Positions 15,740 through 15,813 of a stretch of DNA of 20,000 nt are shown in pieces. Under the pieces are notes generated by a model, which worked only from the letters and a program-made list of their open reading frames with translations, was not told where the DNA came from and did no database searches. Every line of letters begins with the position of its first letter. Position 1 is the stretch's first letter. This DNA is from an uncultured virus (IMG/VR IMGVR_UViG_3300009128_000012) (lineage: Duplodnaviria; Heunggongvirae; Uroviricota; Caudoviricetes): IMG/VR virus record IMGVR_UViG_3300009128_000012. The stretch is one strand, 5' to 3'. Position numbers and translations under genes: made by a program.

Positions 15740-15813
15740 GCGCGGGTAGCTCAGTGGCAGAGCGCCAGTACCGTGAGGGAACGAGGTCGGATGTTCGATT
15801 CATCCCCCGCGCC
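15740..15813 (+). tRNA. tRNA-like RNA 1: canonical acceptor, D and T arms, anticodon arm replaced by a 23S rRNA-like sequence
   Basis: GCGCGGG/CCCGCGC acceptor, TA, GCTC-AGTGGCA-GAGC D arm, AGGTC variable loop, GGATG-TTCGATT-CATCC T arm. Positions 15765-15783 cannot form an anticodon stem. Confidence 0.75.

Follow-up and report, generated by a model that had tools for sequence, protein, structure and literature searches.

A PTH2-linked tRNA-like gene of an uncultured phage carries a stretch identical to 23S rRNA in place of its anticodon arm

The DNA analyzed here is a stretch of 20,000 nt from an uncultured virus (IMG/VR record IMGVR_UViG_3300009128_000012), hereafter called the window, which is phage-like and has a G+C content of 60-71%. 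On its + strand, a gene at 15188-15628 encodes a PTH2-type peptidyl-tRNA hydrolase (Pfam PF01981, E = 1.6e-12; the NCBIfam Pth2 models match the product below their cut-offs) and heads a cassette of three tRNA-like genes on the same strand, located at 15740-15813 (gene 1), 15819-15890 (gene 2) and 15892-15965 (gene 3). Gene 1 starts about 111-112 nt 3′ of the PTH2 gene, and within the intervening spacer (15629-15739, + strand) the T arm of gene 2 recurs in inverted orientation (15698-15712). The two segments, 15698-15712 and 15863-15877, constitute an inverted repeat of 15 nt with 93% complementarity and pair with each other in the minimum-energy fold of the whole region. Neither a sigma-70-like promoter nor an intrinsic terminator was found in 15000-16400. 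Beside the cassette lies a gene for an HNH endonuclease (16258-16980, + strand; phrog_826, E = 4.2e-34, and a weak match to Pfam HNH_3). Domain and profile searches of the 29 ORFs of the window recognized no gene for an rRNA-directed factor, no TROVE domain was present among the same 29 ORFs, and a PDB sequence search with four adjacent ORFs returned nothing informative. Recognizable genes are few in the window; two more distant ones are possibly related to tRNA, a DsrC/TusE-like gene of the sulfur-relay family at 5047-5592 and a polynucleotide-kinase/HAD-like gene at 12649-13263 (phrog_420, phrog_415).

Gene 1 was identified by ARAGORN, by the Rfam tRNA model RF00005 (45 bits against a gathering score of 29, with model positions 1-71 complete) and by alignment with 24 relatives, in which the body helices covary. 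Its layout is GCGCGGG UA GCUC AGUGGCA GAGC G CCAGUACCGUGAGGGAACG AGGUC GGAUG UUCGAUU CAUCC CCCGCGC C. It thus possesses what is expected of a canonical tRNA outside the anticodon arm, namely the 7-bp acceptor stem and the D and T arms with their conserved loop nucleotides, including the GG of the D loop, the T loop, the elbow nucleotides and the variable loop AGGUC. The arm itself lacks the combination of a 5-bp stem, a 7-nt loop, U33 and a readable anticodon. The preliminary description of this DNA had held that no 5-bp anticodon stem can form here, and this was borne out: Infernal aligns the anticodon arm as a 17-nt local insert, the 19-nt slot CCAGUACCGUGAGGGAACG cannot be arranged as a 5-bp stem with a 7-nt loop, and its minimum-energy fold is an irregular hairpin. 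The ARAGORN label, ‘Ser tga’, is forced, with three of five stem pairs and a G at position 33. Because the entire arm is replaced, decoding by gene 1 is impossible. The slot was also considered as a tRNA intron and this was rejected from the sequence, as excising any portion restores no normal arm. There is no tmRNA at this position according to ARAGORN, and Rfam yielded no tmRNA match in the window; its YrlA, mascRNA and miRNA matches in the window all fall far under the respective gathering scores.

The two neighbors are unusual as well. Gene 3 forms a complete cloverleaf whose loop of 9 nt is CUCAUGGAA; ARAGORN calls it ‘His atg’, and Rfam scores it at 52.5 bits with a 5-nt loop insert; the core of this loop, AUGGA, is common to tRNA-like genes of three related loci (L026 2974-3048, L032 2090-2163 and L049 2897-2970). 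A 17-mer from the gene 3 arm had 10 matches in IMG/VR, none of them at a tRNA, and was dismissed as chance. Gene 2 was undetected by ARAGORN and by the Rfam tRNA model and was recognized from its fold, an acceptor/T-arm scan and a weak mascRNA-like Rfam match of 18.9 bits. Its acceptor stem contains G-U pairs, a T arm is present and CCA is encoded; a CCCG-AGG-CGGG hairpin takes the place of the D arm, and after it comes a 7-bp stem whose loop of 9 nt is ACCAUGGAC. Judged from their sequences, none of genes 1-3 should be capable of ordinary decoding.

Within the slot of gene 1, the 17-mer CCAGTACCGTGAGGGAA at 15765-15781 (+ strand, its single occurrence in the window) is identical to nucleotides 455-471 of 23S rRNA in E. 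coli numbering, as found by exact comparison with rrlH, by BLAST and with the Rfam LSU consensus. All 17 positions agree with rrlH of E. coli K-12 (L001 2714-2730; gene start 2260), at precisely the coordinates given in the preliminary description, and again 17/17 with a Terriglobia 23S gene, the rRNA comparison being based on E. coli and one partial Terriglobia 23S. The similarity stops at the 17-mer, with the flanks differing on both sides, and Rfam reported tRNA matches and no LSU rRNA (RF02541) match at gathering score in the window. The Rfam bacterial LSU consensus reads AcuAGUACCGUGAGGGAAAGG at 455-471 and pairs only CC/GG around GUGA, leaving the flanks unpaired, so the CC-GUGA-GG GNRA hairpin that had been proposed for the slot is correct. 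According to ARAGORN, Rfam and the 23S comparison, the composition is therefore real: the tRNA body is intact, and its anticodon slot holds a stretch identical to 23S rRNA.

The identity had been called very unlikely by chance, and the numbers agree. When the whole window was compared with one rrn operon by BLAST, the 17-mer had E = 0.006, followed among non-tRNA matches by a 13-mer; allowing three mismatches or fewer, 0.04 matches to the 17-mer were expected in shuffled sequences, with at least one in 7 of 200 shuffles. Among 63 tRNA-like rows of related loci, the longest exact rRNA match was that of the window slot (17 nt), an outlier followed by one match of 13, one of 12 and four of 11. 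The match of 13, shared by locus L014 with E. coli 16S, lies within expectation for 63 slots. Another candidate, the 12-mer GTGAACCAGTAC at 4565-4576 of the window, equals 23S 450-461 and overlaps the rRNA region of the 17-mer; it falls in frame within a coding region, and its match is no better than chance (E = 5.9).

Four runs (X1-X4) of one marine metagenome study contain the region, and these were compared as per-run contigs, not as raw reads. The X2 contig spans all 601 nt of 15500-16100 and the X3 contig spans 15608-15789, both with 0 differences; the X1 contig, possibly the source of the stretch, carries the slot with 0 differences, and that of X4 does not include the slot, which restricts the slot comparison to X1-X3. 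Support for both junctions, which the preliminary description had named as a check, thus exists at the level of contigs from three samples of one study. Because these contigs agree without a difference, an assembly chimera is very unlikely, and the insert is, we infer, shorter than the usual assembly words; an assembly or sequencing artefact of any kind, for which no indication was found, has a negligible probability. In contigs of another organism from the same four runs we noticed an ordinary tRNA with the loop CTGTTAA, which has 19 nt in common with the D-arm region of gene 1 (15745-15763) and another 18 nt in common with the gene 2 T arm (15863-15880).

The composition appears to be a singleton. 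A search of viral databases for tRNA bodies with rRNA-derived inserts, suggested at the outset, returned no other tRNA-like gene with the 17-mer and then a T loop in IMG/VR, where the pattern of the 17-mer, 6-20 nt and GTTCRA had 0 matches and the 17-mer with a tRNA prefix likewise 0. The 17-mer was also absent, with up to three mismatches, from 261,499 bases of related loci. The pattern of 17-mer and T loop had one match in JGI metagenomes, by chance and inside a coding sequence, and one among 185,579 species genomes, which is a genuine 23S gene. The metagenome match (L012 1786-1804; YQYREGT...) includes the CG that follows the 17-mer (19 nt) and illustrates how such a sequence arises purely by chance where the collection is very large.

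The cassette, unlike the 17-mer, has many relatives. A blastn search with 15600-16000 against cultured phages gave 0 matches, and a single PTH2 query in IMG/VR gave none that could be confirmed. In total, 84 PTH2 homologues were found, and with a PTH2 homologue alignment as query we obtained 40 viral loci encoding PTH2 relatives, 33 of them distinct, as seven pairs are identical downstream of PTH2. The closest PTH2 identity to the window is 57-63%, and no close relative of the phage was found. A tRNA or tRNA-like gene lies no more than about 600 nt from PTH2 in 31 of the 33 distinct loci, the exceptions being L042/L043 and L045. The first such gene often begins 9-15 nt past the PTH2 stop codon and in a minority lies just upstream, and most PTH2-adjacent tRNA-like genes are non-canonical, with ARAGORN giving ‘anticodons’ of two or four letters. 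Rfam found RF00005 and no other family in 20 related loci. Pfam was run on 127 of 141 listed neighbor ORFs, 14 having been dropped for overlap with PTH2 or tRNA-like genes, and found no conserved neighbor besides PTH2, which makes PTH2 plus tRNA-like genes the conserved unit. HNH endonuclease genes adjoin the cassette in the window, L041, L046 and L047. A cassette of PTH2 and tRNA-like genes thus spans many high-GC phage contigs and Myxococcus phage Mx1, and gene 1 is the first of three such genes in the window.

Mx1 (L065), with 48% PTH2 identity, is the sole hit among cultured phages. Its PTH2 gene is immediately preceded by a tRNA-Gly, and about 440 nt downstream of PTH2 lies a tRNA-like gene with the loop AGUAAUGAC (L065 3254-3328) that is absent from the annotation; a TROVE/Ro60-type gene (L065 111-1760) is located about 800 nt upstream of PTH2. 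A complete Mx1 genome has been deposited and its host is named, which may bring the cassette within reach of genetic work and of small-RNA sequencing.

To compare the slots, we picked 25 elements by eye, the window included, from the 63 rows of the acceptor/T-arm scan and two loci found by the gene 1 body pattern; elements at first positions after PTH2 or with a remodelled arm were taken, and the 9-nt-loop class described below, ordinary tRNAs and a few false rows were excluded. The three body helices are 96.5% paired across the 25 elements, with changes on both sides in 13 of 16 pairs, a result equalled by 0 of 500 shuffles. Since all tRNAs show body covariation, this demonstrates intact bodies and not a new function. 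The slot itself, flanked by the D arm and AGGUC, is hypervariable. GNRA caps occur in seven elements (GUGA in the window; GAAA in L026, L030 and L032; GCAA in L061; GCGA in L035; GUAA in L046), CUUG caps in another seven, UUCG and CUCG caps in two each and larger loops in four. The preliminary description had counted homologs with a normal anticodon arm as evidence against its interpretation; such an arm, with a 7-nt UCU loop, is present in three of the 25 (L018, L019 and L051), which bears out this objection in part, and the other relatives carry other hairpins. Pairing is kept in the GAAA hairpins of L026, L030 and L032 despite different stem sequences, and the CUUG-capped arms keep a 3-bp upper helix as GCG/CGC, AUG/CAU, UUG/CAG or CCG/CGG. 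The acceptor stem of the window, GCGCGGG/CCCGCGC, recurs in L015, L035, L058 and L061 with four other slot fillings, and such identical stems with different contents suggest that the slot was swapped lineage by lineage while the body was kept. As the slots differ per lineage and the 23S sequence is in no relative, the filling of the window is best regarded as lineage-specific.

The slots of relatives commonly begin with GAGC(G/A)-CCAG and finish with CG-AGGTC (for example CCAGA CUUCUAG UCUGG in L019), so only about 12-13 nt (ACCGUGAGGGAA) are new in the window slot, and its CCAGU is probably the retained 5′ strand of the ancestral stem. In 23S rRNA, CCAGU stands directly before the new stretch, and AGGU directly follows GGGAA in the consensus.

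The slot combines a specific motif with a low predicted stability. A pattern scan identified the sarcin-ricin-class hairpin pattern AGUA - CC - GUGA - GG - GAA at 15767-15781 (+ strand), from which the three-dimensional motif is predicted. AGUA...GA(A/C) is what we take to be the consensus of the bulged-G (sarcin-ricin, loop E) motif, and the gene 1 slot would accordingly have the sequence of a bulged-G module. The pattern AGTA / k bp / GNRA / k bp / GA[AC] has two sites in the E. coli rrn operon, 23S 457-471 and the sarcin-ricin loop, and in 250,766 bases of the window and loci it is present in the gene 1 slot and at one site in L042 only. These data bear on the possibility that the identity arose by convergence, through selection for a bulged-G and GNRA hairpin at the tip of the arm whose tight rules make the 23S sequence fairly likely to appear without copying. 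The motif fixes 9 of the 15 nt of AGUA-CC-GUGA-GG-GAA, one of its only two rRNA sites is the one in question, and GNRA caps are common in the family. However, the AGUA/GAA pattern is in no other family member, and convergence would in addition have to arrive at an identical 2-bp helix and at identical N and R positions of the loop, which we estimate at about 1 in several hundred; this leaves the explanation quite improbable.

With its GUGA cap, the gene 1 slot has the lowest predicted stability of the 25 aligned slots, -2.4 kcal/mol versus -5.6 to -16.3 in the others, although nearest-neighbor energies give no credit for the stability of a bulged-G motif. It could for this reason be decayed and fall outside the rule of a stable capped hairpin. 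Gene 1 would then be a tRNA pseudogene, a former Arg-UCU-like tRNA as in L018, L019 and L051 that has lost its anticodon arm, with a coincidental 23S match. A rearranged look of the cassette would fit such decay, given the spacer of about 112 nt versus 9-15 nt, the inverted T-arm fragment and a gene 2 without a D arm, and the coding sequence of L012 illustrates that the 17-mer, even the 19-mer with CG, does arise by chance. Yet the conserved body and elbow positions of gene 1 are all intact and the slot alone is changed, non-anticodon slots are a rule of the family kept by compensatory changes, and the chance that 12 new bases beside CCAGU match is, by our own estimate, ~1e-6 per element. A perfect body and so large a coincidence weaken the case for decay, which we consider unlikely.

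We regard it as probable that gene 1 is a non-decoding member of a PTH2-linked group of tRNA-like genes with a replaceable anticodon slot, and that the 23S stretch is the filling of this lineage, a patch from rDNA or a product of convergence, rather than a conserved and selected mimic. Most simply, the 23S-identical stretch would have originated when a short piece of rDNA was copied in at the CCAGU microhomology, so that the loop and 3′ strand of the ancestral arm gave way to ACCGUGAGGGAACG and CCAGU was kept, yielding the 17 nt of 23S 455-471. The HNH genes that adjoin the cassette make a break in the tRNA cluster plausible, as we infer. The RNA of gene 1 would be transcribed together with PTH2, excised by tRNA-processing enzymes and folded into an L shape; co-transcription and release by tRNA processing are likely because no promoter or terminator lies between and because the first gene of relatives follows 9-15 nt past the stop codon. 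Such an RNA would retain all features read by tRNA-binding proteins outside the anticodon. It might decoy host factors directed at tRNA bodies, or compete for them, in the conflict over translation in the host, or else it might assist PTH2 in the clearance of stalled translation; as the linkage to PTH2 is fixed, both roles fit. A ribosome-rescue role for phage PTH2 was proposed by Iyer et al. 2021 (PMC7824862). Against the reading of a lineage-specific filling count the distance of the nearest phages (PTH2 57-63%), which makes the history of the slot untraceable, and the rank of the slot as the least stable of 25.

Selection for mimicry stays alive because an identity of 12-17 nt to a highly conserved 23S hairpin is hard to obtain from a random patch source. 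The preliminary description had interpreted the composition as an rRNA mimic, a decoy for a nuclease or modifier or a sponge for a ribosomal protein; the chimeric composition stood, and the function found no comparative support, the 17-mer being in no relative and other hairpins occupying the slot. As a selected mimic, the tRNA scaffold would display the hairpin 23S 455-471 and titrate a host nuclease, modifier or ribosomal protein. The low E value and outlier rank of an exact 17-nt identity speak for this, as do the complete sarcin-ricin-class pattern, which is rare in sequence, the fully intact body and a slot tolerant of foreign hairpins. They are opposed by the searches of three large collections and of 261 kb of related loci, which yielded no further case, by the unrelated hairpins in the slots of relatives, whose rRNA matches do not exceed chance, and by the window ORFs, among which no rRNA-directed factor was recognized; to our knowledge, moreover, no factor targets 23S 455-471. 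Weighing these points, we find a selected mimic distinctly unlikely. Should it be true, the 23S-identical slot would be the first of its kind. A broader and more speculative proposal, to which we likewise give little credence, would make PTH2 and the tRNA-like genes a functional cassette with exchangeable hairpins at the anticodon position, in which a true copy of 23S 455-471 here baits a host factor and PTH2 handles what follows for peptidyl- or acyl-tRNA. Taken singly, no case is more striking than the 23S-identical slot, yet on present evidence it is one filling among many; the cassette is the more solid and testable finding, and the rRNA identity at a single locus is a curiosity whose meaning is uncertain.

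Unusual phage tRNAs are already known, as are non-coding RNAs that resemble tRNA. In the full-text literature searched, with subscription journals and supplements outside, we found no description of PTH2-linked tRNA-like genes with replaced anticodon arms, of their companion genes with 9-nt loops and A34, or of a tRNA body with an rRNA hairpin, and the PTH2-linked remodelled tRNA-like group is apparently undescribed so far. Why phages carry tRNA genes is an old question, and recent work links them to escape from tRNA-cleaving defences. tRNA bodies with swapped anticodon arms beside a PTH2 of archaeo-eukaryotic type point to a function of tRNA-shaped RNA besides decoding. This arrangement, in which bodies with other hairpins stand beside genes with 9-nt loops and ‘forbidden’ A34 anticodons, is widespread among high-GC phages. 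We know of no nuclease for the case of gene 1, unlike that of phage tRNAs that escape nucleases. Such tRNAs reportedly evade host anticodon nucleases through altered anticodon loops (eLife 2023, PMC10264068; related work, PMC11464382 and PMC11555353). They resemble gene 1 as clustered phage tRNA genes with an anticodon region unlike the host form and a role in translation conflict, whereas they still decode and have point changes in a 7-nt loop and gene 1 has its whole arm replaced.

The slot of gene 1 resembles the 23S hairpin 457-471 in its identity over 455-471 and the sarcin-ricin loop in its succession of AGUA, a short helix, GNRA and GA(A/C); unlike the 23S hairpin, it stands outside an rRNA context and its flanks diverge. 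The tRNA-like domain of tmRNA and the stable RNAs of the T4 tRNA cluster are tRNA-shaped and tRNA-processed and have no working anticodon. Like the latter, gene 1 is encoded within a phage tRNA cluster, and unlike tmRNA it has no mRNA-like part. A further parallel is the bacterial Y RNA YrlA, reportedly described with the Ro60/TROVE protein by Chen and coworkers in 2014. In YrlA (see also PMC7824862), a non-coding RNA with tRNA-like acceptor, D and T elements has a protein-binding helix at the place of the anticodon arm, which is comparable to gene 1. The TROVE gene of Mx1, about 800 nt upstream of its PTH2, recalls the YrlA/Ro60 setting. The gene 1 RNA differs from YrlA in its Rfam YrlA score (17.9 bits against a gathering score of 69) and in topology, as its acceptor stem is built from the two ends; no YrlA match reached the gathering score in 20 related loci, among them that of Mx1.

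The companion genes near PTH2 fall into several recognizable types. ARAGORN called A34 anticodons (aat, aag, atg, ata, aac, att) in 20 of the 33 distinct loci, in 19 of them within 600 nt of PTH2, and anticodons of this kind are not normally used by bacteria. The A34 calls resemble a change from G34 to A34 across several isotypes, including anticodons of the His, Tyr and Asn type (L014-L053). A highly conserved class with a 9-nt loop has AGUAAUGAC or its variants ACUAAUGAC and AGUAACGAC, often on an identical stem CCGAG/CUCGG, with a G at position 37 and a 31-39 mismatch; it comprises L017 2961-3034, L048 3305-3377, L044 2364-2438, L035 3189-3261, L065 3254-3328 and members in L036, L038, L051 and L025. 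A second remodelled class has a long arm composed of a 3-4 bp base, a purine-rich internal loop (GAAG/UGGA, GAUG/CGGA or GAAG/CAGA), a covarying 3-bp helix and a CUUG tetraloop (L041 2912-2990, L030 2893-2972, L039 2810-2889, L049 2813-2892, L018 2934-3014 and L026 2891-2969). In tRNA-like genes of L035 (about 3008-3185) and L046 (about 2830-3010), the D-arm region is separated from the T arm by inserts of ~100-150 nt. Finally, a small conserved ORF with the motif ..AHSRGH(I/V)H.. lies 3′ of PTH2 in L020, L022, L023, L029, L034, L036, L044, L048 and L052, and in these loci the tRNA-like gene is located upstream of PTH2 or downstream past the small ORF.
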